Positions 3,890 to 21,001 of a stretch of 64,000 nucleotides of DNA are shown here, in pieces (position 1 is the stretch's first letter; each line of letters begins with the position of its first letter). Origin of the DNA: Alphaproteobacteria bacterium (GTDB lineage Bacteria > Pseudomonadota > Alphaproteobacteria > CAAHEQ01 > UBA3637). Location of the stretch: NCBI GenBank assembly GCA_017466695.1, contig JAFTTR010000002.1:70837-134836 (forward strand), in the 5' to 3' direction. The notes under the pieces are model-generated. The model did no database searches. It was not told where the DNA came from and saw only the letters and a program-made list of their open reading frames with translations. The translations under genes were made by a program, and so were the position numbers.

Positions 3890-4906
3890 TTGAAAAACAA
3901 TCAATTATCAAAGTGTTATCAAATGAATACACCAACTTGTCCTTATGCTTCAAAATGTGGTGGCTGTTTATATTTAAACATGCCGTTTGAAGAATACATA
4001 CAAAAGAAAAAGAATTTTATTATCAATTCGTTTTCTCATGCAGGCATTCAAATTCAGTTAGCTGATTTTATCATCATTCCTTTTGGGAAAAGACGCAGAG
4101 CCACATTTGCTTTTAAAAAAGGCATAGTTGGTTTCAACGAAAACAAAAGTCATCAAATTATCTCTATGGATAAATGCCCTAGCCTAACTGAAAATTTATC
4201 TTCACTCCTACCAAAATTAAAAGAACTCACTTTTTTGATTGGGAAGAAGGGGGATATTTCTCTTTTAGAAACACCTCAAGGTGTGGATATTCATATTAAA
4301 ACTGGCAAAGAGCAACCTTCTCTTGATTTAAGAATGGAGTTAGCCACGTTTGCAAGTGATGAAAAAATTATACGTTTAAGTTATAATTTTGAACCTATCT
4401 TGCAAAAAATACCTTTATCTCTTCCCATTGATGCTTTTTTACAACCTTCTTTTGAAGGAGAGCAAACCCTTGTAAATTTAGTTTTATCCAACTTAAAAGA
4501 TGAAAAAAAAGTTGCAGACCTTTTTTGTGGAGCCGGCACATTCACAACGCCTTTAATCAAGTCTGGTTTTGATGCTACGGGTTTTGACCTCGCAAAGGAA
4601 AGCGTAAAACTACTTGGGAGCAAAGGTGTTTTTCGTGATTTGTTTCGCAATCCACTCACAACACAAGAACTGAATGAATTTGATTGTGTCGTTATGGACC
4701 CTGCTAGAGCTGGCGCAAAAGAACAATCAAAAGAACTAGCAAAAAGCCAAGTTCAAAAAGTTATTATGATTTCTTGCAACCCTATTACAGCAGCAAGAGA
4801 CAGCCTCATTTTGCTTGAAGGGGGATTTAAATTAACAAAAACCATTGGTGTTGATCAATTTATTTACACCAATCATTGTGAAGTTTTTTGTCTTTTCGAA
4901 AGATAA
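3890..4906 (+). CDS. SAM-dependent RNA (uracil-5)-methyltransferase, RumA/TrmA family (RlmC-like, no TRAM domain)
   Basis: N-terminal 4-Cys cluster CPYASKCGGC; SAM motif DLFCGAGTFT; DPARAG; nucleophile motif MISCNP. Confidence 0.7.
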   Translation: MKNNQLSKCYQMNTPTCPYASKCGGCLYLNMPFEEYIQKKKNFIINSFSHAGIQIQLADFIIIPFGKRRRATFAFKKGIVGFNENKSHQIISMDKCPSLTENLSSLLPKLKELTFLIGKKGDISLLETPQGVDIHIKTGKEQPSLDLRMELATFASDEKIIRLSYNFEPILQKIPLSLPIDAFLQPSFEGEQTLVNLVLSNLKDEKKVADLFCGAGTFTTPLIKSGFDATGFDLAKESVKLLGSKGVFRDLFRNPLTTQELNEFDCVVMDPARAGAKEQSKELAKSQVQKVIMISCNPITAARDSLILLEGGFKLTKTIGVDQFIYTNHCEVFCLFER

Positions 4907-5035
4907 TTTAAAATCATAAAAAAAATCAAACAGTTCTTATCTTCACCTCTTTATTTATATTTTTTATAAAAAAGATAAAAAAACACTTGCAATTTTATAA
5001 AAAAACCGTTATCATATTGCACAAATGAAAGTGAG

Positions 5036-5251
5036 GTGAGTACCATAGTTACAATCGTTGTCCATGACAATAACGTTGAACAAGCATTACGTGTGTTGAA
5101 AAAGAAAATGCAACGTGAAGGTAGTTTTCGTGAAATGAAATTACGTCGTTACTACGAAAAACCATCTGAAAAAAAAGCTCGTAAAGCAACTGAATGCATT
5201 CGTCGTTCTCGTAAGATGAAAAGAAAACGTTTCAGCGTTGAAGGGTACTAA
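5036..5251 (+). CDS. rpsU: 30S ribosomal protein S21
   Basis: [43 protein letters not shown] is close to S21. GTG start, which overlaps the AGGTGA Shine-Dalgarno, so the exact start is uncertain. Confidence 0.85.
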
Positions 5252-5287
5252 TCCTTAATAGGTATTATTTACCATAGAGTTAAAAAA

Positions 5288-5316
5288 TCCCCGTAGCGAT
5301 CGCGCGGGGTTTTTTT
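5288..5316 (+). terminator. Rho-independent terminator after rpsU
   Basis: ccccgtagcgatcgcgcgggg stem-loop followed by ttttttt. Confidence 0.7.
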
Positions 5317-5549
5317 GATAAAAAAATAAGAGCCCTGCTCTTTTTATGAATTGATATTAAATATCAAAGAAATACTCTTATTTAAAAACGTCAAGTCAAA
5401 AAACACAAAAAACAAAACAAATCTGTTTTGATTTCATCTATAAAAAAAATAAAACCCAATTATTTAAGCATTACAACCAGATGTGCACAAAGAAGTGTCG
5501 TTCTGAAATTTATCATCTTCATATGACAGGAGTTTGCCTGAACACATTC

Positions 5550-6767
5550 CTATTGAAATCTTAATGCATCAATTGGATCCAATTTCATAGCTTTTATTGC
5601 CGGCATTAAACCAGATACAACACCCACAACCACAGCAACTGTTACAGAAATAACAACAGACCAAAGAGATATTGGAACCTGTTTTTCAAAAACAACTCCG
5701 GCTACTTGTGATCCCAGCACACCAACCACCATACCAACAAAACTCCCCATAAATGAAATCATCACAGATTCGGTTAAAAATTGAAGCATAATCCATTTAT
5801 TTGAAGCCCCCAAAGCCTTCCTTGTGCCAATTTCTCTTGTTCTCTCCGTTACAGAAACAAGCATCATATTCATAATCCCAATACTACCCACCAGCAAAGA
5901 AATTGAGGCAATCGACGCTAACAAAACAGACAAAGCAAAACCAACACTCCTAACTTTTTCAACCATATCTGTCATTAGCCTAACTGAAAAGTCATTAGCA
6001 ACCCCATCTTTTAAGTGATGTCTTGCTCTCAGTTGATATTCAATTCGATTAGCAACAGCCTCCATTTTATCTTCACTCACAGTTTTAACAAACGCTACAT
6101 TCGTATATTGTGGCCGAAACCCAGAGTGAATCCGTTGACGAAAAGTCGTTGCAGGCATCATCACAATATTATCTTGGTCATCCCCCATAAGGCCATCCCC
6201 TTTTTCTTTAAGCGTTCCAATAACAGTAAAAGGGCGACTTTTTAAACGAATAACCTTACCAATAGGATCTTGCAGACCGAACAATTCCTCAACAATTGTT
6301 TGTCCAATAACAACATAAGGACGCCCTGTTTTTAAATCTTTTTCACTAAACATAGAACCTTTATCAATTTCCCAATTACCAATTTCAAGATATTCAGGGG
6401 TAGTACCTGCCACACTCACCCCATAGTTGTTGGAACCATAAACAGCTTGTACAGCAAAGTTAACCAGATACGAAGCTGTCTTCACATCTTTTAAATTTTT
6501 TAAAGACTCAACATCATCAAAACTTACACTGGGCCTACCTCTACCACCTCGAACGCCTCCACTAACTGTTTCCCCAGGACCAATAATAATTAAATTTGTA
6601 CCCATAGAGTCAAATGTTTTTGTAATTTCATTTTGCACCGTTTGACCTGCTGCCACCATCATCACAACAGCTGCCACCCCAATTAAAATCCCCAGCATTG
6701 TCAAAAAAGTACGTAATTTGTAGGCACTAATTGAAATCCAAGACTCTTTTAATATCTGGTAAATCAT
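5550..6767 (-). CDS. ABC efflux permease, FtsX/MacB family (periplasmic core domain plus 4 TM)
   Basis: N-terminal TM, large periplasmic domain, C-terminal FtsX-like TM bundle; operon context with ABC ATPase, HlyD and TolC. Confidence 0.8.
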   Translation of the reverse strand: MIYQILKESWISISAYKLRTFLTMLGILIGVAAVVMMVAAGQTVQNEITKTFDSMGTNLIIIGPGETVSGGVRGGRGRPSVSFDDVESLKNLKDVKTASYLVNFAVQAVYGSNNYGVSVAGTTPEYLEIGNWEIDKGSMFSEKDLKTGRPYVVIGQTIVEELFGLQDPIGKVIRLKSRPFTVIGTLKEKGDGLMGDDQDNIVMMPATTFRQRIHSGFRPQYTNVAFVKTVSEDKMEAVANRIEYQLRARHHLKDGVANDFSVRLMTDMVEKVRSVGFALSVLLASIASISLLVGSIGIMNMMLVSVTERTREIGTRKALGASNKWIMLQFLTESVMISFMGSFVGMVVGVLGSQVAGVVFEKQVPISLWSVVISVTVAVVVGVVSGLMPAIKAMKLDPIDALRFQ

Positions 6768-7492
6768 TGTCCCTCCTTATTCAAATAGGCTGAACGAAGA
6801 CCATCATATTCTTTTCGCCCATCGTGAATTTTAATCATACGGTGCGCATAATCTGCCACATCATCCTCATGTGTTACCAAAACAATTGTAATACCTGCCT
6901 GATTGAGTTTTGAAAAAAGCGCCATAATTTCATCAGAAGTTTTGGTATCTAAATTCCCAGTTGGCTCATCTGCAAAAATAATAGCAGGATTGTTCACCAA
7001 AGCTCTTGCAATGGCAACACGTTGTTGCATACCCCCTGAAATTTGAGTTGGAAGTCTATCTTCATACCCTTTCAACCCCACAATTTTAAGCATTTCGACA
7101 GCTCTTTTATACCTTTCCTTTTCACCAACACCCTGATAAATCAAGGGTAAAGAAACATTATCAGCTATTGTTCGTTTCATCAAAAGGTTAAAGTTTTGAA
7201 ATACAAACCCTATTTCATGCCCTCTGATAAAAGCAAGCTCATTGTCCGTTTTTTGAGAAACAAGCTTCCCTGTTAAATAATACGCCCCTTTTGTGGGTCG
7301 ATCCAAACAACCCAAAATATTCATCAAAGTTGACTTACCAGAGCCAGAATGACCCATAATAGCTACAAACTCCCCTTTTTCAATTTTAAAAGAAACATTC
7401 TTGAGAACGGACTGGCTCATTCCACCAGCCATAAAATATGTCTTACATAAATCTTTCACCTCAATAACGGTTTCTTTTTGTTGTTTTGCCAT
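6764..7492 (-). CDS. ABC transporter ATP-binding protein (MacB/LolD-like ATPase)
   Basis: Walker [10 protein letters not shown]; signature [15 protein letters not shown]; Walker [13 protein letters not shown]. Confidence 0.9.
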
Positions 7493-8604
7493 TATTTTCG
7501 CCCACCTTTTTGAATGTATTCTGTAATGAATTGGTCGCCTTCTTTAAGTCCATCAACAACTTCAACATAAGAGGCATCCATAATTCCACGAGTAAAGACA
7601 AGAGGCACCACTTTGCCATCAATCAGTTGGTAGATAACCCCTTGATTAGCCTCTAAATCAAGTGTCACTTTGGGAACATATTTTCTAACCAATGCATTGG
7701 GTTTATATTGCAAAGCAGCCGTAGGAATACGAAGAACGCCTTCTTTATCATGAATAACAATTTGAACAAAAGCTGTCATCCCTGGCAATAACTTACGTGA
7801 AGAATTATCCACCTCAATCACAACCGTATACATCACAACATTTGACTCTTCGGTTGGGGATAATCTAATTTGTTTAACAACCCCGGAAAAAGCATCATTT
7901 GGGTAAGCATCCACCGTGAAAGAAGCTTTCATCCCAGATTGAATTGCTCCAATATCTGCTTCAGCAATACTCGCTTCAATTTGCATTTTGGACAAATCCT
8001 CAGCAATGGTAAATAACGTTGGTGTTTGAAGAGAGGCTGCTACTGTTTGACCTTGTTCCACTTCTTTGGAAATCACCGTTCCTGAAACAGGCGAAGTAAT
8101 TTTAGCATAGCCAAAATTACGTTCAGCCTTATTAAAATCAGCCGTTGCTGTTAAAACATCAGCTTCAGCTATGGCTAAATTAACCTCTGCTTCTTCCAAA
8201 GAGGCTTTGGCAATCAATTTATCTTTATAAAGTTTTTCATATCTTTTAAAGTTTAAATCAGCCACCTTCTTTTTCGCATAAGCTAAATCTAATCTAGCTT
8301 TGGCATCATTTTTATTCTCCGTTAAAACAGCCGTATCCAGCTCAGCTAAAAGTTGCCCTTCTTTGACTTCATCATTATAATCAACCAATACTCTTTCAAC
8401 AATTCCAGAAACTTGCGTTCCCACACTGACCGTATTAACTGGTTGAATTTTACCTGATGCCGTTACCTCTTCAACAATTCGACCCTTTTCAACTTTCATA
8501 ATTTCAAAATCTTGCTTTGTAAGGGCTTTTTCTTTTCCCCCTGAAAAAGCATATATCCCACCCCCAATTAATAGCACAATAATTAAAACGACCCACTTTT
8601 TCAT
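7492..8604 (-). CDS. Periplasmic adaptor (membrane fusion protein), HlyD/MacA family
   Basis: N-terminal anchor, coiled-coil segment, beta-barrel/lipoyl-like regions; overlaps neighbouring genes by 1 nt (operon). Confidence 0.8.
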   Translation of the reverse strand: MKKWVVLIIVLLIGGGIYAFSGGKEKALTKQDFEIMKVEKGRIVEEVTASGKIQPVNTVSVGTQVSGIVERVLVDYNDEVKEGQLLAELDTAVLTENKNDAKARLDLAYAKKKVADLNFKRYEKLYKDKLIAKASLEEAEVNLAIAEADVLTATADFNKAERNFGYAKITSPVSGTVISKEVEQGQTVAASLQTPTLFTIAEDLSKMQIEASIAEADIGAIQSGMKASFTVDAYPNDAFSGVVKQIRLSPTEESNVVMYTVVIEVDNSSRKLLPGMTAFVQIVIHDKEGVLRIPTAALQYKPNALVRKYVPKVTLDLEANQGVIYQLIDGKVVPLVFTRGIMDASYVEVVDGLKEGDQFITEYIQKGGRK

Positions 8605-9947
8605 TAAAACCTCCCTATGGCACGATACAAACTTGCCTTACTTGTTAACACGGCATAATAAGCTACAATAACTTCCTTTCTCGCATTAGATAGCTGTGAA
8701 CCGGCTGTCAATAAATTCAAAATATCCCCTTTACCAACTTGATATGAAGCAAAAGCCACTCGTTCATTTTCAACAGCACTTTCCAGCGCTTTTTTGCTAA
8801 TTTCATAAGAAGAAACAGCCGTTTTATAATTGTGATAAGAAGTCCAAACCTCATTTTTAACCATTTCAATCATTTCTTCTTTTTGTAAAAGAGCTTTTTC
8901 CTTTTGCGCCTCAGCCTCTTTCACATTATATGTTACTGAAAAGCCAGAAAAAAGAGGAACAGAAACATTCAACCCAATACTTGAGGAATAATCAAAATTA
9001 TTCCTTTCTTTAAAATCATCCCCATAACCGGAAGATGCTGTTAAAGAAATGGTTGGCATATGCATTGATTTCAAGGCTTTTACATTTTCAGTAGCTGCTA
9101 AAATATCTTTGTCAGCTTTTTGAATTTCAGGTCTGAGCCCTATCGCTGTTTCAATCATTTTATCAACACTCATCCCTTGCATGGAAAGTTTTGTCAAATC
9201 CCTATCATTTTTAGGTTTTAATAGGTTAAAATCAGTCGTTGGGGAAACATTTAATAAAACAGCTAATTTACCTTGATTTGTTTTAACCTGATTTTCAGCT
9301 TGAACAACATCTAATCTTGATTCTTCATAACTTGTTTTAGCAAGCAATTTATCACTTAAAGAAACAAGACCTAACTCATAACGTCTTGAAGATTCCTCAT
9401 ACGATTTTTTAAAACTTGCTTCACTTGTTTTGGCGCTTTTTAAAACCTCTTGGGCACTGAGTAAATCAAAATAAGCCTTATTAATTTCTAAAAAAGTATC
9501 TTTGATTTGAGCATTGTATTCAAACCCTGAAGATAACATATAATTTTCAGCCCTCTTCACACGAGCAGAACGGCCCCCAAAATCATAGAGCATCCACGAA
9601 AGAGCCGCATTCAAACGATAAGGATTAGCGGCATTCGAATTAAAATCTTCCACCTTATTATATGTATCTTCCATTGCACCTTTTAAAGTAACACTTGGCA
9701 AATACTCTGCTTTAGAGGCACCCAAAGAAGCCTCTTTTGCCTTCACTTCCATATACCCTCTATTTAAAGTCGGATTATTACAAAGCCCAATTTCTAACAA
9801 TTCAGGCAATCCCATAGGGCCTTTTAAAATATCTTTATCCACACAATTTTCTGGTGCTTTTTGTTCAAAAACATGAAAGGGATCCATGGCCTGCGCCACC
9901 CCTGAAAAACAAATTATACCCATACCTAATAAGAAAATTTTGCGCAT
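8604..9947 (-). CDS. Outer membrane efflux protein, TolC family
   Basis: Signal peptide MRKIFLLGMGIICFSGVAQA; two repeated OEP-like halves; first gene of the operon. Confidence 0.8.
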   Translation of the reverse strand: MRKIFLLGMGIICFSGVAQAMDPFHVFEQKAPENCVDKDILKGPMGLPELLEIGLCNNPTLNRGYMEVKAKEASLGASKAEYLPSVTLKGAMEDTYNKVEDFNSNAANPYRLNAALSWMLYDFGGRSARVKRAENYMLSSGFEYNAQIKDTFLEINKAYFDLLSAQEVLKSAKTSEASFKKSYEESSRRYELGLVSLSDKLLAKTSYEESRLDVVQAENQVKTNQGKLAVLLNVSPTTDFNLLKPKNDRDLTKLSMQGMSVDKMIETAIGLRPEIQKADKDILAATENVKALKSMHMPTISLTASSGYGDDFKERNNFDYSSSIGLNVSVPLFSGFSVTYNVKEAEAQKEKALLQKEEMIEMVKNEVWTSYHNYKTAVSSYEISKKALESAVENERVAFASYQVGKGDILNLLTAGSQLSNARKEVIVAYYAVLTSKASLYRAIGRF

Positions 9948-10120
9948 TTTTAACTCCTCACATGAAGGTTAACGAATATCCCCACCTAAATGTTCAAAAA
10001 AACTCTCTCGATAGTAGTACACCTTCCAAATCAAGTCAATATTTTTTTGATTTTTAATAAAAACACTTGTATTTAAAAATAAGTTCCTATAAACTATTAT
10101 TCTTGAAAAGGAGATATGAT

Positions 10121-10507
10121 ATGATTGGTGAAATTACAAAGAAAGTGGAAGCTTTAAATAAACTTAAAGAAACGGCAAATAATCCAAAAATTTTATGGGA
10201 AGAAATGCAAATTGTTGCTGACAAATCTTTTCAACTACAAGAAGATATATTAGCCCTTATTCAGCAAGCTGAAGAAACAGAAAAGAACATTGCTGCACTT
10301 CAATCGCTTTTTGAAACAAGAGAAATGGTTTGGGATATCATTGATGAAATTGCTGCGCTTGAAATAAAATCAAAAGAAAAAGCTCATAAAAAACAATCAA
10401 AATGTGCCTCAAAAAAAAGTTGTCCTGACAAAAAATGTGATTGCCATCATTCCTCTCATGAAGCCCAAGAAGAATGTCATAGCTCCTGTTGCTGCCACAA
10501 ACATTAA
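10121..10507 (+). CDS. Small coiled-coil protein with Cys/His-rich C-terminal tail (putative metal-binding), hypothetical
   Basis: AAGGAG RBS 7 nt upstream of ATG 10121 (the ORF-track start at 10067 is less likely). Tail KCASKKSCPDKKCDCHHSSHEAQEECHSSCCCHKH. Confidence 0.5.
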   Translation: MIGEITKKVEALNKLKETANNPKILWEEMQIVADKSFQLQEDILALIQQAEETEKNIAALQSLFETREMVWDIIDEIAALEIKSKEKAHKKQSKCASKKSCPDKKCDCHHSSHEAQEECHSSCCCHKH

Positions 10508-10522
10508 AGGAGAAGAACTTAT

Positions 10523-10771
10523 ATGACAAATAGTTTAGAAAATCTCTCTTTTGAAGAAGCCATGCAAGAACTAGAACAAGTTGTTCGCCAACTTGAAACA
10601 GGCAAAGTGAAGTTGGAAGATGCTGTATCAGCTTATGAAAAAGGGGTCGCACTTAAAAATATTTGCGAAGAAAAATTAAAAAATGCTAAATCAAAAATTG
10701 ACTTATTGGTAATTGGTGATAACAACACTCCTATTGCAACGGAAGATTTTGATGACAACATTAACAAATAG
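10523..10771 (+). CDS. xseB: Exodeoxyribonuclease VII small subunit
   Basis: LSFEEAMQELEQVVRQLETGKVKLEDAVSAYEKGVAL is typical of XseB; ~80 aa. Confidence 0.85.
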   Translation: MTNSLENLSFEEAMQELEQVVRQLETGKVKLEDAVSAYEKGVALKNICEEKLKNAKSKIDLLVIGDNNTPIATEDFDDNINK

Positions 10772-11642
10772 TTTGAGAAATGTTAGAAGCGAACTAGATA
10801 CTTATTTTAAAAACCATTTTCAAAATGAAATGGGGCTTCCCTCTGAAGTTCTTAAAGCCATGAGTTATTCCTTTATTGGAAAAGGAAAGGCATTAAGACC
10901 TTTTTTGGTTTTAACAGTTGCTGATATTTTAAATTTAGATAAACAATCAGCGTTGCAAATTGCACTTGCCATTGAAATGGTACACACCTACTCTCTTATT
11001 CATGATGATCTACCAGCTATGGATAATGATACCTTGCGAAGAGGGCAACCAACTTGTCATATTCAATTTTCTGAATCCACTGCCATTTTGGCTGGAGATG
11101 CTCTTTTAACACATGCATTTGAGGTTTTAGCTGATGAAAAAACACATCCCAATGCCCTTGTTCGTTGCCAATTAATTGCTTATCTTGCCAAAAGTGCTGG
11201 GGTTGAAGGGATGATTGGAGGGCAAGTCATGGACCTTCAAGGTGAAAAAATCCCCTTGATGGAAAATGAGATTTACAAAATGCAATCTATGAAAACCGGC
11301 GCTTTATTAAAATTTTCTTGCATTGCCCCTGCTATAGCAGCTCAAAAAAATCAAGAAACGATTGAAGCTTTAACCTCTTATGCCAACGCTATTGGTCTTT
11401 TGTTTCAAATAACAGACGATTTATTAGATGAAATAGGCTCAGAACAAGAAGTTGGTAAGACGCTCAAAAAAGACAAAAAAGCTGGTAAATCAACATTTTT
11501 AAATCTCTATGGTATTCAAAAAACAAGAGAACTTGCTCTTGAGATGCATCAAAAAGCCTTACAAGCGTTAAATACGCCTATTTTAAAGGAATGTACTTTA
11601 CTCAAAGAGTTAGCCAACTTCATTTTAACAAGGACCTATTAA
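10752..11642 (+). CDS. ispA: Farnesyl diphosphate synthase (geranyltranstransferase)
   Basis: FARM LIHDDLPAMDNDTLRRG and SARM FQITDDLLD motifs. Start taken at MTTLTN, a 20-nt overlap with xseB. Confidence 0.88.
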   Translation: MTTLTNSLRNVRSELDTYFKNHFQNEMGLPSEVLKAMSYSFIGKGKALRPFLVLTVADILNLDKQSALQIALAIEMVHTYSLIHDDLPAMDNDTLRRGQPTCHIQFSESTAILAGDALLTHAFEVLADEKTHPNALVRCQLIAYLAKSAGVEGMIGGQVMDLQGEKIPLMENEIYKMQSMKTGALLKFSCIAPAIAAQKNQETIEALTSYANAIGLLFQITDDLLDEIGSEQEVGKTLKKDKKAGKSTFLNLYGIQKTRELALEMHQKALQALNTPILKECTLLKELANFILTRTY

Positions 11643-12287
11643 ATGGCATTGATGAAAAAGAATGAACTGAAACTTTTTTTAGACAAACTGTTTGAAGTCT
11701 ATCCCAATCCACGCTGTGAATTAAACTATATCAATCACTTCACTTTACTTGTTGCTATTATTTTATCGGCCCAAAGCACGGATAAAGGGGTTAACAAGGT
11801 AACTGAAAAGCTTTTTCCTGTCGCCTCAACACCTGAAGAGATGCTTTTGCTTGGGGAAGAAAGATTAAAACAATATATCCGTTCGATTAACTACTTTAAT
11901 AATAAGGCAAAATCCATTATTAAATTAGCTCATCAACTCATTGAGAACTTCAATGGGCAAATCCCCACTGATTTTGAAACACTCAAAACTTTAAGTGGTG
12001 TTGGGCAAAAAACAGCTAGTGTTTTTTTAAATGTTGCCTATCATGCTCCCTTTATTGGCGTTGATACCCACGTTTTTCGCCTGTGTCATCGGCTTAATAT
12101 TTGTAAGGGGAAAGATCCAAGCGCTGTTCAAGAAAAATTACAAAAAATCATTCCAGCAAGCTATCAACCAGATGTTGCTTTGGCGCTTGTCTTTCATGGG
12201 AGATATGTTTGCACAGCAAAACGACCAAAATGCGCAACATGCCCTTTAAAGGATGTCTGCACTGCAATTGAAAATAAGGAGATATAA
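11643..12287 (+). CDS. nth: Endonuclease III
   Basis: HhH-GPD LSGVGQKTASV; C-terminal 4Fe-4S loop CTAKRPKCATCPLKDVC. Confidence 0.9.
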   Translation: MALMKKNELKLFLDKLFEVYPNPRCELNYINHFTLLVAIILSAQSTDKGVNKVTEKLFPVASTPEEMLLLGEERLKQYIRSINYFNNKAKSIIKLAHQLIENFNGQIPTDFETLKTLSGVGQKTASVFLNVAYHAPFIGVDTHVFRLCHRLNICKGKDPSAVQEKLQKIIPASYQPDVALALVFHGRYVCTAKRPKCATCPLKDVCTAIENKEI

Positions 12288-13858
12288 TGCGTTTATCTAT
12301 CTTTTTAACACTCATCAGTATAAGTCTTCTTTCAAATCACAGTTTTGCAACAAATATTGAAACGTTGTTTAACTTGAAAGACCCAAACTATTATAAAGAG
12401 ACAGTTTCAAAAACATATACAAACACCCCTATTATTAAAATTGAAGGACCTGCTCCTATTGTTGAAGGGGAAAAAGACATTGAACGCCCCACACTTAAAC
12501 CCTCAAGCATTGATGAACTTAAGGCTTTAACGCCTCAAATTAATCAAACATATACCCTTAAAACTCCTTTTGGACAAAATACAACAGCTGACAATTTAGA
12601 ACACACGACTGATTTTAACGTACAAATTCAAATTATTGACAATAAAACGGTTTCTGTTCAAGAATATATTCAGTTCATCTCCCACCAGAAAAAGAAACTT
12701 TCAAGACACATTCCCTTACAACTTCAAAAAGGCTTAGCCCCTTTAAACATTGAAATGAATACTTTTGAAAAAAATGGTAAAAAAGTCAGTTATGACATTC
12801 AAAAAAGCAATGATGAATTTGTCATTACCAGCACAAAAGAATATCCTGCCGGCGTTCATATGATTCATTTAAACTATATTGCTCATAATGCTATTCAAGA
12901 ACAAAATGGCATGACTCAACTTTTTTTAAGCTTAACAGGAAAACACTGGCCATATCCTGTCAATAGATTTAAAGCTATTGTTCTTTATCCATATATACCA
13001 GTCTCTTATCAAAAAAATTTGCTTGCAGGCACAAACAACATCAATCTTACACAAGGAGTTGACATTGTAACAGATATTAAGGGAAATTCAATTTATACCC
13101 TAAAACAAATTTTACCAGCTTTTGGTGATGTAAGAATTTTTGAAACCTTTGATGGGAAAAACTTACCCCAAAATTTCAGCGAGTTATTCTTTCAAAAATA
13201 TAAAAAATTGTTCTTTTCTTTATTCTCGTGTTTAGCTATTTTCTTATATCTTGGACTTTCAACACTTTATATAAAAAAAATAGAAAAAAGACATGAAAAT
13301 GTTTTAAAACGTGTAAATCGCCTCTCATTTACAACATTATTGTTATTACAGAAGAAAAAAATCAAAAAAGATGTTGTTTCTACATTAATCAAAATAAAAA
13401 AAATAACAAAGAAATCTTCTTTTATTCTTAAAGCACTTGCTTTTTTAATGAAAACAAAAATAACACAATCTATCACAAAAAGAGTTCTTAAATTCTTAAC
13501 TCTTTTTGTGGCCTTATTTAAACATTTATTTGTTGTAAGTGTTATTTTAGGAGTTACCACATTCCCTTTCATTCAAAAGGCCGGAGGATCAGATATTGTC
13601 TTTTTAATACCTCTTTTCTTTGCTATCATAGCTGTGAAGTTTTTTTATCAAAAAGTTCTTATTCCTGAACTTAAAAATGATTTGAAACTTTTTAAAGAAA
13701 AATTACTCAGTCCTCATATTTGTTTTGGACTAAAAGACAGCACAATTTTAGCTTTTTATTTAAGATATTTACAAACAGCCTATTTACTTAATATTGATGA
13801 TAAGTTAGCATCTATTATCACCACTCAAAATCCTGATATTCAATTACCTTCTATTTAA
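12287..13858 (+). CDS. Hypothetical secreted/membrane protein: signal peptide, ~300-aa extracytoplasmic domain, C-terminal multi-TM region with Lys-rich loops (DUF2207-like architecture)
   Basis: Signal peptide MRLSIFLTLISISLLSNHSFA; C-terminal hydrophobic segments (FFSLFSCLAIFLYLGL; LTLFVALFKHLFVVSVILGV; IVFLIPLFFAIIAV). AAGGAG RBS; ATG overlaps the nth stop. No catalytic motif recognised. Confidence 0.5.
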   Translation: MRLSIFLTLISISLLSNHSFATNIETLFNLKDPNYYKETVSKTYTNTPIIKIEGPAPIVEGEKDIERPTLKPSSIDELKALTPQINQTYTLKTPFGQNTTADNLEHTTDFNVQIQIIDNKTVSVQEYIQFISHQKKKLSRHIPLQLQKGLAPLNIEMNTFEKNGKKVSYDIQKSNDEFVITSTKEYPAGVHMIHLNYIAHNAIQEQNGMTQLFLSLTGKHWPYPVNRFKAIVLYPYIPVSYQKNLLAGTNNINLTQGVDIVTDIKGNSIYTLKQILPAFGDVRIFETFDGKNLPQNFSELFFQKYKKLFFSLFSCLAIFLYLGLSTLYIKKIEKRHENVLKRVNRLSFTTLLLLQKKKIKKDVVSTLIKIKKITKKSSFILKALAFLMKTKITQSITKRVLKFLTLFVALFKHLFVVSVILGVTTFPFIQKAGGSDIVFLIPLFFAIIAVKFFYQKVLIPELKNDLKLFKEKLLSPHICFGLKDSTILAFYLRYLQTAYLLNIDDKLASIITTQNPDIQLPSI

Positions 13859-13873
13859 AAAAAAGGACTAACC

Positions 13874-14989
13874 ATGAAAACAACATTATTTCTTTTTTTA
13901 ATATTAGCGACAACTTCTTTTACAGCAAGAGCAACTTTGCAGGATTTAGCAAGCGAATATTCACCCATTCAACCGATTAAAGAAATTGCTCAAAAAACAA
14001 TTGAGTTATCTGGTGCACTTTCTGGAACACTTGAAAAAAGCCCTACAGCCATTCTGCAAGAACAGCTAAATGAGGCTTTTGATGATGATAAAATGCTGGC
14101 TTTTTATTTATCCACGCCAAAAGAAAAACGCCAATATCTTTTTCCAATGATACATATAGCGCCTTTTATTTCACATAAAATTAAATCCCATCCAGAAATT
14201 TTGTTTTATAAAAATAAACAACCAACCATTATTGCCCCTAGGTTGCAAGAATTTGCAAAAAAACATTTGAACGACCTTTCCCCTTACTATTACAATTATT
14301 TAGATCCTGAGTTTTGGCAAAAAACACCTCAAGAAGAACTTTGCAATCCTGAAATGGTACAACAAGAAAGAGCCCCAGCTTTGAAAGAAAAAGGACCAGA
14401 TTATGTCTATCCAACAATTAGGGAAATCTTTAATCTCGCTGGAAAAGATGCAAAAGATTATTTTAAAACCAGTCTCACAAGTGATGATTTAGCAAAATTT
14501 TCATCTGTTATTGCTGACTTAGAATCTTTCACCCCTGTTCATTTTGAAAAAGATAACCTGATTGTTTTTGTTTCCAAATACTCAAAGAATCAACCCTTTA
14601 GGTATATCGGTGATCCTTTCTTAATGTATCTTTTTACACTTGAAAAATTAGATGAAAGAGAAAATTTTGACGCCTTTGTTCAAAAACATGGGTTCAAAGA
14701 TGGGCAAGATTTTGCCTTAAAAGCTGATAAGATTGTTAAGGCTTATAATGCCTTGACGCTTCATTTGTTAATTGCCTCTTACATCACCCAACATAAAGAA
14801 GGCAAATCCATTAAACAACCTACCAGAGAGGACTTTGGGGCACCAGATATTCACGTAATGGATATGTATACCAGAATGAATTCATCCACACCTGGAGATG
14901 TTTATTTTGTGAAAAAATATAAAGATCAAATTAAACCAATTTTAAAAACAAACTTTATCCAATATGGTATTATGTTTTATATTGACTAA
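13874..14989 (+). CDS. Hypothetical secreted protein (371 aa)
   Basis: Signal peptide MKTTLFLFLILATTSFTARA; no recognisable domain; very AT-rich. Confidence 0.45.
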   Translation: MKTTLFLFLILATTSFTARATLQDLASEYSPIQPIKEIAQKTIELSGALSGTLEKSPTAILQEQLNEAFDDDKMLAFYLSTPKEKRQYLFPMIHIAPFISHKIKSHPEILFYKNKQPTIIAPRLQEFAKKHLNDLSPYYYNYLDPEFWQKTPQEELCNPEMVQQERAPALKEKGPDYVYPTIREIFNLAGKDAKDYFKTSLTSDDLAKFSSVIADLESFTPVHFEKDNLIVFVSKYSKNQPFRYIGDPFLMYLFTLEKLDERENFDAFVQKHGFKDGQDFALKADKIVKAYNALTLHLLIASYITQHKEGKSIKQPTREDFGAPDIHVMDMYTRMNSSTPGDVYFVKKYKDQIKPILKTNFIQYGIMFYID

Positions 14990-15037
14990 ATCGAAAAGAA
15001 ACGCTATACTCTCAAGAAATTAGAAGGAGTTTTACAA

Positions 15038-15664
15038 ATGGCTTGGACTGCAGAAAAGATTAAACAACTTAAAAAATTATGGCTCAAAGGTAAAAGTACA
15101 ATTGAAATTGGAAAAGAACTTGGCATTTCAAAAAATGCTGTGGTTGGAAAAGTTCACCGGTTAGAACTTGCCGCTCGTCCTTCTCCAATTAAACGGGTAC
15201 AAAAACCTACTACAGCTACAAAACAAAAGGTTGTTAAAAAAGAAATTAAACCTAAAAAAATGACTTTAATGGATTTAAAACTCACTTCTTGCAGATGGCC
15301 AATTGGTGACCCTAAGGATGAAGATTTTCACTTTTGTGGGGCCGATACAGTCACGGGAAAACCTTATTGCGCTGAACACTGCAAAGTTGCCTATACTTCA
15401 TTAAAAGAACTCACTCTTCAAAATGCAAAAGCAAAAAAAGAAAAAGAAGAACAAGAATTGTTAGAAAAGCAAGCTGATGCTCTTTTAAAAGAAGCTGATG
15501 AAAAAGAATCTAAAAAAACAAAAGCAACTTCAAAGAAAAAACTTTCATTAGAAGAACAACAATCTTTATGGGAACAACAAGCTGATGCGTTGCTCGCTGC
15601 TGCTGACGAAGCTGAAGCACCAAAAAAAAGAGCTAGCTCGAAGAAAAAAGAAACAGCAATCTAA
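15038..15664 (+). CDS. gcrA: Cell-cycle transcriptional regulator GcrA
   Basis: N-terminus MAWTAEKIKQLKKLWLKGKSTIEIGKELGISKNAVVGKVHRL and the C-terminal CRWPIGDP...CAEHC motif are characteristic of GcrA. Confidence 0.88.
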   Translation: MAWTAEKIKQLKKLWLKGKSTIEIGKELGISKNAVVGKVHRLELAARPSPIKRVQKPTTATKQKVVKKEIKPKKMTLMDLKLTSCRWPIGDPKDEDFHFCGADTVTGKPYCAEHCKVAYTSLKELTLQNAKAKKEKEEQELLEKQADALLKEADEKESKKTKATSKKKLSLEEQQSLWEQQADALLAAADEAEAPKKRASSKKKETAI

Positions 15665-19444: not shown

Positions 19445-19592
19445 AAGAAACCCCCAATTGGATGTGTTAATATTCGTTTATTTTTGAATATATTATAACA
19501 AATTTTAATAAAAAGCAATATTTTTTCATTTTTTTTAATATTTTTTATTGACATTTATATTTTTTGAGGCTATAAGTATTTTATCAACGATG

Positions 19593-20131: not shown

Positions 20132-21001
20132 CTATCTTTCTAATTTTAAATGATAATAAGGAGAATTTTTAAGCAAAGGACGAATATGCGTGTTGAATAG
20201 CACTTTTTCTTCCACAGATAAAAACAAAATTTCACTTTCCTTTGCCTCGTCATTATTTTTAATCACTCCATTGCCTTTTAATGTTTTCATAAAATGAAAC
20301 CAAACAGGCTGCGAATGGATATTATTTTTCATTTTTTTATTAAAAACAACATATTCAAAATATTTTTTTTGTTGAAAATGAGAGAAATTTTTTCTTTGAA
20401 TAGCGTAACTATCCCCATTCTCACCGTTAAATGGTCCTAATTTATATTTCACAAGAACACCATTATGTGAAAATGTGTTGTATCCCTTTAAAGAAAAATG
20501 CTTATTATCATTTTCCGCTTTTTTCATCATCTCGACAAATTCTTTTAACCTATTTGTTAAATAAACCTGATCAGCATCAATTTTCACAACCCATTCGTTT
20601 GGTTTAAAAAATTGCAATCCAAATTGATTATACGCTGCTAATGTATTCTCATAAGGAACAGATCCTTTATATCTCTTATCATGAGAAGGAATAACAGCAT
20701 GAGGATATTCATGAATTTCACAACTGGGCCTTTTTTCACACCACGCATTCATAAAAGCAACAGAGCCATCATCTTTTTCATTTGAATGAATAATAACAAT
20801 CCTATCAAAAACGCCGTCAATTGAATTTAAACAGGCCTCAATGGTGTTTATTTCATTCTTAACACGTAAATAGGCTGATGCAGGAAATGCTTCTGTTCCC
20901 TGCGCATTTATAGAGTTAAAAAATATATAAATTACAACAAATAATAACAACTTCTTAAAGTTTTGCTTTAACACAAAATACCCCCACACTTTTTTAGACA
21001 A
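20132..21001 (-). CDS. Putative glycosyltransferase (GT-A-like, DxD motif) with N-terminal membrane anchor/signal
   Basis: Hydrophobic N-terminus LLLFVVIYIFFNSINAQG; beta-strand-like RIVIIHSNEKDDGS followed by VVKIDADQVY (DxD). Very AT-rich; lies directly next to the tRNA-Met pseudo-copy array. Confidence 0.45.
   Translation of the reverse strand: MSKKVWGYFVLKQNFKKLLLFVVIYIFFNSINAQGTEAFPASAYLRVKNEINTIEACLNSIDGVFDRIVIIHSNEKDDGSVAFMNAWCEKRPSCEIHEYPHAVIPSHDKRYKGSVPYENTLAAYNQFGLQFFKPNEWVVKIDADQVYLTNRLKEFVEMMKKAENDNKHFSLKGYNTFSHNGVLVKYKLGPFNGENGDSYAIQRKNFSHFQQKKYFEYVVFNKKMKNNIHSQPVWFHFMKTLKGNGVIKNNDEAKESEILFLSVEEKVLFNTHIRPLLKNSPYYHLKLER

Follow-up and report, generated by a model that had tools for sequence, protein, structure and literature searches.

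Two adjacent open reading frames (ORFs), ORF1 (523 amino acids) and ORF2 (371 amino acids), lie between nth and gcrA in an uncultured Alphaproteobacteria bacterium and are the subject of this report. The stretch analysed, here called the window, comprises 64,000 nucleotides of contig JAFTTR010000002.1 (assembly GCA_017466695.1, positions 70,837 to 134,836 of the forward strand). Comparison with related loci shows that the pair represents, in shortened form, a longer nth-to-gcrA cluster, whose order in more distant relatives is DUF2207, then in some cases an SPFH/Band7-NfeD pair, then DUF4139 (MuiA-like, periplasmic), the ORF2 family and gcrA. Here, we describe the two proteins, the conservation of their arrangement and a predicted gcrA promoter that reaches into ORF2, and then weigh what the pair might do.

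ORF1 and ORF2 form the 3' end of a packed array that begins with a small Cys/His-rich ORF, with the housekeeping genes xseB, ispA and nth packed directly 5' of ORF1 (Table 1). The stop codon of nth (TAA, 12285-12287) and the ATG of ORF1 (12287-12289) share one base in the sequence TAATG, and the ORF1 start is preceded by the ribosome-binding site AAGGAG. Fifteen nucleotides separate the ORF1 stop from the ORF2 start, with AAGGA before ORF2. A scan of the + strand for terminator-like sites returned a single weak match across the array, inside ORF2, and no convincing internal terminator from xseB to ORF2. Given this close or overlapping packing and the single weak site, co-transcription of ORF1 and ORF2 with ispA-nth is plausible.

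Table 1. Features of the nth-gcrA region discussed in the text (window coordinates; TM, transmembrane helix; aa, amino acids)
Feature	Position	Strand	Basis or remark
Small Cys/His-rich ORF	10118-10507	+	First gene of the operon-like array
xseB	10523-10771	+	Exonuc_VII_S match
ispA	10713-11642	+	polyprenyl_synt match
nth	11643-12287	+	TIGR01083 match, 248.6 bits
ORF1, DUF2207-family inner-membrane protein (predicted)	12287-13858	+	ORF list of the window; PF09972 match
ORF1 predicted leader peptide, aa 1-22	12287-12352	+	Hydropathy; hydrophobic N-termini kept in orthologs
ORF1 DUF2207 N-terminal domain, aa 108-272	12608-13102	+	PF09972; within predicted periplasmic region, aa 23-305
ORF1 predicted membrane part	13208-13654	+	Hydropathy and charge counts
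ORF1 predicted TM1, aa 308-328	13208-13270	+	Hydropathy
ORF1 Lys-rich loop, aa 329-401	13271-13489	+	22 Lys/Arg and 3 Asp/Glu in 73 aa
ORF1 predicted TM2, aa 402-425	13490-13561	+	Hydropathy
ORF1 predicted TM3, aa 438-456	13598-13654	+	Hydropathy; 12 residues between TM2 and TM3
ORF1 C-terminal tail, 67 aa, LLSPHICFGLK...FYLRY	13655-13858	+	Conserved; cytoplasmic by predicted topology
ORF2, putative exported all-alpha protein, undescribed family	13874-14989	+	ORF list of the window; family searches and AlphaFold2 model
ORF2 predicted signal peptide, aa 1-20	13874-13933	+	Hydropathy heuristics
ORF2 most conserved family block, aa 78-148	14105-14317	+	Family alignment
Predicted sigma-70-type gcrA promoter, TTGACT-N17-TATACT	14982-15010	+	Hexamer scan and conservation
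gcrA, cell-cycle sigma-70 cofactor	15038-15664	+	Pfam/NCBIfam match; constant neighbour of the ORF2 family

ORF1 matches Pfam family PF09972 (DUF2207) over residues 108-272 with 39.6 bits, against a gathering cut-off of 24.4, and all 13 of the orthologs scanned match the same family (E<=1; best 2.1e-11). Leader peptides and transmembrane helices were judged throughout by hydropathy and charge-count heuristics only. By these measures the ORF1 N-terminus, MRLSIFLTLISISLLSNHSFA/T, shows the three parts of a leader, namely a positively charged n-region, a hydrophobic core and, at its end, an AxA-like site (...SFA/T). It is followed by about 283 residues of balanced charge and then by three predicted helices, the first two separated by the Lys-rich loop. 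Because of the positive-inside rule, the N-terminal domain (about 280 residues) would be periplasmic, and the loop and the C-terminal tail cytoplasmic. The second Pfam domain of YciQ-like proteins, PF20990 (DUF2207_C), is not matched by ORF1 at E<=1 and is matched by only 2 of the 13 orthologs, at E about 0.1. No Gly/Ser-rich C-terminal stretch was found in the last 67 residues of ORF1, and Gly makes up 3.4% of the whole protein. NCBIfam, PADLOC and PHROGs gave nothing further on ORF1, and sequence-profile searches of the PDB with its family gave no match. Since both the defining domain and the layout fit and the membrane half diverges, ORF1 is, as judged from sequence, a divergent member of the DUF2207 family. 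A paper on a Wolbachia 'DUF2207' effector was set aside as unrelated, its domain calls being weak.

ORF2 appears to be exported and soluble. In its N-terminus, MKTTLFLFLILATTSFTARA/T, a positively charged n-region and a hydrophobic core again lead to an AxA-like site (...ARA/T). Searches of Pfam and NCBIfam gave no match, and a Pfam scan of 57 members of its family found no family common to more than two of them; scores of 17 bits to Cas8b and 15 bits to a family of unknown function in PADLOC and PHROGs were taken as noise. No catalytic motif is recognisable in ORF2, and neither ORF matches a catalytic family or, in Pfam or NCBIfam, the DUF4139 domain.

The ORF2 family is a small one. A word-indexed search of 5.8 billion proteins returned only 11 clusters; when 1.84 billion representatives were searched exhaustively with a profile, 93 were found at E<=1e-3 (67 at E<=1e-10), mostly of 330-440 amino acids. 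The distant members all come from metagenome-assembled genomes (MAGs) or raw assemblies, and none could be traced to a cultured organism. A leader-like N-terminus is present in 76 of 85 full-length members, with a lipobox-like motif in 3; most of the other 9 look like truncated gene calls, because they start within the conserved region. Family alignments, with the window protein as reference sequence, reveal a Pro/Tyr-rich signature, P82-x-E-x-R-Q-Y88-x-F-P91 ... H-P107-x-I ... K-x-K-x-P117-T-x-I-A-P ... Y140-x-x-L-x-P145-E-x-W, in which Y88, P91, P117 and P145 are invariant across 57 sequences. The C-terminal helical domain carries P248 and D285-x-x-x-K-A-Y, within the motif FA-x-x-x-D-x-x-x-KAY. 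ORF2 itself has all three family hallmarks: the leader peptide, the Pro/Tyr block and the motif of the C-terminal helical domain.

An AlphaFold2 model of ORF2 built from the 57 sequences is all-alpha, with a predicted local distance difference test (pLDDT) score of 85.7; it replaced an earlier model from 11 sequences with pLDDT 51. Foldseek found no usable match to the model in the PDB (best E 1.6) or among the viral structures of BFVD (best E 0.84), and a sequence-profile search of the PDB with the ORF2 family found none. ORF2 thus appears, from these searches and the model, to found a family undescribed in Pfam and NCBIfam that has no solved structural relative in the PDB.

The arrangement of the pair was followed in 24 fetched loci (L001 to L024) and the window, with genes classified by profiles built from these loci; a metagenome scan with a narrower alignment returned 4 loci. 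The named sources are all MAGs of uncultured 'Alphaproteobacteria bacterium', several of them sampled from the rectum of sheep or yak or taken from species-level genome-bin catalogues; they may belong to the low-GC gut lineage RF32. One assembly, GCA_054276675.1, encodes ORF1 and ORF2 proteins with 98-99% identity to those of the window. The order ispA-nth-DUF2207-ORF2-gcrA-polA is identical in the window, L001-L011 and L020, with ORF2 identities from 99% down to 40% (the L002 contig stops at ORF2), and the order extended by xseB in front of ispA recurs in all the close relatives examined among gut Alphaproteobacteria MAGs. In L012/L013, where ORF2 is about 24% identical, the order is nth-DUF2207-ORF2fam-gcrA-polA (ORF2fam denoting a gene of the ORF2 family), with no ispA detected. 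L023, a contig of 1.9 kb, has DUF2207-ORF2fam with both genes cut by the contig ends.

More distant loci contain additional genes. L015, L016, L019, L021 and L022 have DUF2207-DUF4139-ORF2fam-gcrA-polA (the L021 contig breaks off inside DUF2207), and the DUF2207, DUF4139 and ORF2-family genes of L015, L016 and L019 are joined by 4-nt overlaps of the ATGA type. The fullest cluster is that of L014, DUF2207-Band7-NfeD-DUF4140/4139-ORF2fam-gcrA-polA, in which the SPFH/Band7-NfeD pair (4123-5571) is nested between the DUF2207 and ORF2-family genes. Two loci have no adjacent DUF2207 gene: L017, where DUF4139-ORF2fam-gcrA lies in a different neighbourhood with gapR and genes for bactofilin, an M23 peptidase and DivIC, and L018, where gcrA is divergent from DUF4139-ORF2fam. 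L024 has a 141-residue N-terminal version of the family (980-1465), in which the leader and the conserved N-terminal block persist and which stands directly 5' of a long gcrA; the ORF before it resembles a phage lysozyme, judged by eye. In all loci with flanking sequence, the window included, gcrA adjoins an ORF2-family gene. Queries with 4 DUF4139 proteins of relatives gave no tblastn match within the 64 kb of the window, and no SPFH, NfeD or LemA gene was found there.

A predicted sigma-70-type promoter offers one reason for the constancy of the ORF2-gcrA junction. The -35 hexamer TTGACT (14982-14987) and the -10 hexamer TATACT (15005-15010) are separated by a spacer of 17 nt, the -10 hexamer lies 28 nt 5' of the gcrA ATG, and a ribosome-binding site AAGGAG follows at 15024-15029. 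The -35 box falls within ATT GAC TAA, the final sense codons of ORF2 together with its stop. TTGAC and AAGGAG are invariant in 12 of 12 aligned loci, and the -10 region is largely kept; the alignment includes L016, L019, L012 and L014, where identity to the ORF2 protein of the window falls to 20-25%, and in L019 the -35 box falls wholly within coding sequence. The embedded promoter would explain the conserved C-terminal Asp of the ORF2 family, and would supply a mechanical reason for the fixed order of ORF2 and gcrA. A promoter within ORF2 does not account for L018, in which the linkage holds with a divergent gcrA.

The GcrA of the window has a C-terminal extension that contains an internal duplication (within 15444-15649) rich in Lys, Glu and Ala, at 108-nt spacing (15444-15480 paired with 15552-15588, and 15494-15541 with 15602-15649); GcrA length varies from 133 to about 376 amino acids among related loci. 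GANTC, the CcrM motif, is depleted in the window, with 96 sites compared with 176.8 +/- 14.4 expected from shuffles. Such depletion is typical of genomes with CcrM methylation, and it fits a CcrM/GcrA system in this genome.

The original prediction, made from the window sequence alone, is confirmed in what it observed: two adjacent ORFs of these lengths and positions, signal peptides on both, no recognisable catalytic motif, a DUF2207-like layout for ORF1, a soluble secreted or periplasmic ORF2, and a tight tandem whose first ATG overlaps the nth stop. Its claim of co-transcription with ispA-nth stands as plausible from the packing, rather than as shown. Its interpretation is only partly supported. 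It had called the proteins orphans, and ORF1 turns out to be a DUF2207 protein and ORF2 to belong to a family of at least 93 clusters. It had also described the genes as inserted between nth and gcrA, and had asked whether these are adjacent elsewhere. They are never directly adjacent: no empty site was found among the loci examined, and all of them have the pair or an extended form of it. Because the pair occupies the same position in all relatives (ORF2 identity down to about 20%) and nth never stands beside gcrA, the genes are ancestral and not inserted; they are vertically inherited core genes of an uncultured, mostly gut-derived lineage of Alphaproteobacteria. The pair is thus essentially a standard conserved one in all relatives, which by the reasoning of the original prediction lowers its interest. 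The ORF2-gcrA linkage, the gcrA promoter in ORF2 and the larger DUF4139/SPFH/NfeD cluster are points beyond that prediction.

Features of mobile DNA were likewise not found around the pair. Candidate flanking repeats were only A-rich chance matches, no tRNA or mobility gene flanks the pair (the nearest tRNA is at 19592), and no integrase or secretion-system gene was found by it. Very low GC content had been claimed for both genes. For ORF1 this holds: its GC of 0.291 is the lowest of the 46 long ORFs in the window (z -2.8; -1.85 for GC at third codon positions, GC3). ORF2, at 0.328 (z -1.5), is unremarkable. The deficit of ORF1 sits in its membrane half, which is rich in Lys, Ile, Phe and Leu and has a GC of 0.249, so that amino-acid composition, and not foreign origin, accounts for it. 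The second-lowest GC in the window is that of a 206-residue ORF at 20132-20752 (-), at 0.296 (z -2.6).

Both genes are under purifying selection, yet evolve faster than nth and gcrA. The ratio of nonsynonymous to synonymous substitution rates (dN/dS) in the least saturated pairs is 0.13-0.15 for ORF1 and 0.10-0.13 for ORF2, rough values given that synonymous sites are near saturation. At equal divergence, ORF1 and ORF2 are 47-62% identical, compared with 77-79% for nth and gcrA. Faster evolution under constraint is common for envelope-exposed proteins.

What might such a pair do? We put at about even the chances that the two proteins act together in envelope maintenance as a periplasmic complex anchored in the membrane, present in the window in a reduced form. 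The DUF2207 protein (ORF1) would be the anchor, and ORF2, joined by the DUF4139 protein where that is present, the soluble partner; together they would serve envelope maintenance or stress buffering. The pair would be expressed constitutively with xseB-ispA-nth, and the embedded promoter would lock ORF2 and gcrA together through evolution.

Several points weigh against this envelope-maintenance complex. ORF2-family genes stand without an adjacent DUF2207 gene in L017 and L018, and ORF2 is accompanied most constantly by DUF4139 and gcrA, not by ORF1. Because DUF4139, SPFH, NfeD and LemA were not found within 64 kb, the ORF1-ORF2 complex would lack components, or would draw them from other parts of the genome. 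Literature support for the envelope-stress role is thin, coming from two distant relatives in other phyla. The E. coli DUF2207 gene, yciQ, appears in the literature only as a neutral integration site, a use which suggests that it is dispensable in the laboratory. Finally, promoter-like matches across the AT-rich region are no commoner than chance, and the case for the gcrA promoter therefore rests on conservation.

Perhaps ORF1 and ORF2 are instead unrelated passengers, ORF1 being a generic DUF2207 membrane protein and ORF2 being held in place by the gcrA promoter in its 3' end and by a rarely rearranged block from xseB to polA; their adjacency would then carry no information on a shared function. 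The invariant -35 box within ORF2 is what such an arrangement would leave, as is the remnant in L024, where only the 141 N-terminal residues of the family persist directly 5' of gcrA. The loci with an ORF2-family gene and no DUF2207 gene (L017, L018) also agree with it, and the whole block is syntenic, nth and polA included. It is difficult to see, however, why a promoter carrier, which needs only its last 10 nt, should be conserved over its full length with a dN/dS of about 0.1, or why DUF2207, DUF4139 and ORF2-family genes should be joined by 4-nt overlaps in several lineages. Moreover, DUF4139-ORF2fam stays by gcrA in L018, where the divergent gcrA cannot use a promoter internal to ORF2. 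Independent passengers are possible, and we consider them doubtful.

A further view ties the module to the GcrA/CcrM cell cycle: it would act in the periplasm in envelope growth or division, its expression or activity being coordinated with gcrA. Such coordination, going beyond the embedding of the promoter, would account for a linkage that persists when orientation or neighbours change: the family stays by gcrA in all flanked loci, including L017 with its other neighbours and L018 with its divergent gcrA, and GANTC is strongly depleted in the window. Regulation at the locus argues the other way. GANTC is absent from the gcrA promoter and from the sequence immediately 5' of the operon genes, and the pair of the window lies in an operon with housekeeping genes, where no cell-cycle promoter is evident. 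In addition, we know of no homolog beside gcrA in Caulobacter, Brucella or Sinorhizobium. On balance this view seems unlikely. Quite unlikely as well, in our estimation, is the more ambitious idea that DUF2207, DUF4139 and the ORF2 family make up an unrecognised periplasmic machine coupled to GcrA, for example an envelope growth or division checkpoint, with an ORF2 fold unseen in solved structures, of which the clade of the window, part of a deep host-associated lineage, would have a minimal two-protein version.

The original prediction had also raised a host-interaction module. No evidence points there, and a horizontally acquired module acting in host interaction, as secreted effector or as adhesin, is very improbable and largely refuted by synteny. 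In its favour are the low GC of ORF1, the predicted export of both proteins, their faster evolution than nth and gcrA and the gut association of the organisms. Against it, every relative has the pair in this position, even where identity is as low as about 20%; the GC3 of ORF1 lies within 2 standard deviations of the window mean, with low GC confined to the Lys/Ile/Phe-rich membrane half; a look at the surroundings showed neither flanking repeats nor genes for tRNA, integrase or secretion systems; PADLOC and PHROGs gave nothing; and ORF1 is anchored by three predicted transmembrane helices.

The new details, the association of DUF2207, DUF4139 and the ORF2 family with gcrA and the embedded promoter, concern hypothetical proteins of uncultured bacteria, and current understanding is unchanged unless a cell-cycle or envelope link is demonstrated experimentally. 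They are of use in several respects. DUF2207 is a widespread family of bacterial membrane proteins without known function, and its fixed operon partners here yield testable partner hypotheses. The ORF2 family, which is absent from Pfam and NCBIfam and has a confident all-alpha model unmatched in solved structures, could qualify for an entry of its own. The -35 box in the end of ORF2 would be a clear example of a promoter freezing gene order, and it gives a predicted transcription start for gcrA in uncultured gut Alphaproteobacteria, which in the window would be near 15017, some 7 nt 3' of the -10 hexamer.

Two neighbouring regions deserve mention. The protein of the first gene in the array (10118-10507) has a coiled-coil-like N-terminal part followed by a Cys/His-rich tail, with 15 Cys and His in the last 45 residues and the end CCCHKH. 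It has no match in Pfam or NCBIfam; its position and tail are kept in L001, L003, L004, L015, L016 and L019, and it may bind metal. Divergent from the operon is a TolC-like OEP gene (8604-9947, -), in a neighbourhood (about 5000-9947, -) that is kept in close relatives. In the near-identical contig L020, the OEP gene is followed by genes for a membrane-fusion protein, an ABC ATPase and an FtsX/MacB-type permease.

The locus can be compared with four known systems. Operons of SPFH (Band 7) and NfeD resemble it in that such a pair is nested in the L014 cluster, which hints that membrane organisation or quality control is common to both; neither gene was found in the window, and ORF1 and ORF2 have no sequence likeness to either. 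LemA-DUF2207 pairs are the usual neighbourhood of DUF2207 genes, and here too a DUF2207 membrane protein is tightly paired with a smaller helical protein. ORF2 differs from LemA in having a predicted cleavable signal peptide where LemA has an N-terminal anchor. The possibility that ORF2 is itself a LemA protein (PF04011) was rejected, as there was no Pfam match and hhalign of the ORF2 family with true LemA gave a probability of 0.15%. A LemA gene does occur in L016 (13459-14013, -), on the opposite strand and some 5 kb downstream of the cluster, beside the gene of an ankyrin-repeat protein.

The third system is that of MuiA and the DUF4139-DUF4140 proteins (TIGR02231). A DUF4139 gene lies between the DUF2207 and ORF2-family genes in L014, L015, L016, L019 and L022, the loci with both flanks present, and directly 5' of the ORF2-family gene in L017 and L018. 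The relatives' DUF4139 proteins are weak matches to the MuiA family, far below the TIGR02231 cut-off, and the gene clusters of the window and its close clade differ in having no DUF4139, which is missing from all 64 kb of the window. In P. aeruginosa, MuiA is a periplasmic protein of the cell-envelope stress regulon under sigma-SbrI (PMC10418997).

The closest likeness in sequence is to the DUF2207 proteins themselves, PF09972, which include E. coli YciQ and S. mutans SMU.243. ORF1 is shorter than these (523 compared with about 630 amino acids), its cytoplasmic loop is extremely Lys-rich, its partner gene comes from another family, and it has neither a detectable DUF2207_C domain nor the Gly/Ser-rich intracellular C-terminal stretch present in SMU.243 and most DUF2207 members (PMC10457818). 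Its N-terminal domain nevertheless scores above the family cut-off, and its layout of leader, large extracytoplasmic domain, transmembrane helix, cytoplasmic loop and two further helices is that described for the family (PMC10457818). The S. mutans DUF2207 mutant has lower acid and oxidative tolerance and forms less biofilm, and the gene stands beside uppP (PMC10457818). A gene of polyprenyl-lipid metabolism is thus near in both cases, uppP beside SMU.243 and ispA in the putative operon of ORF1.

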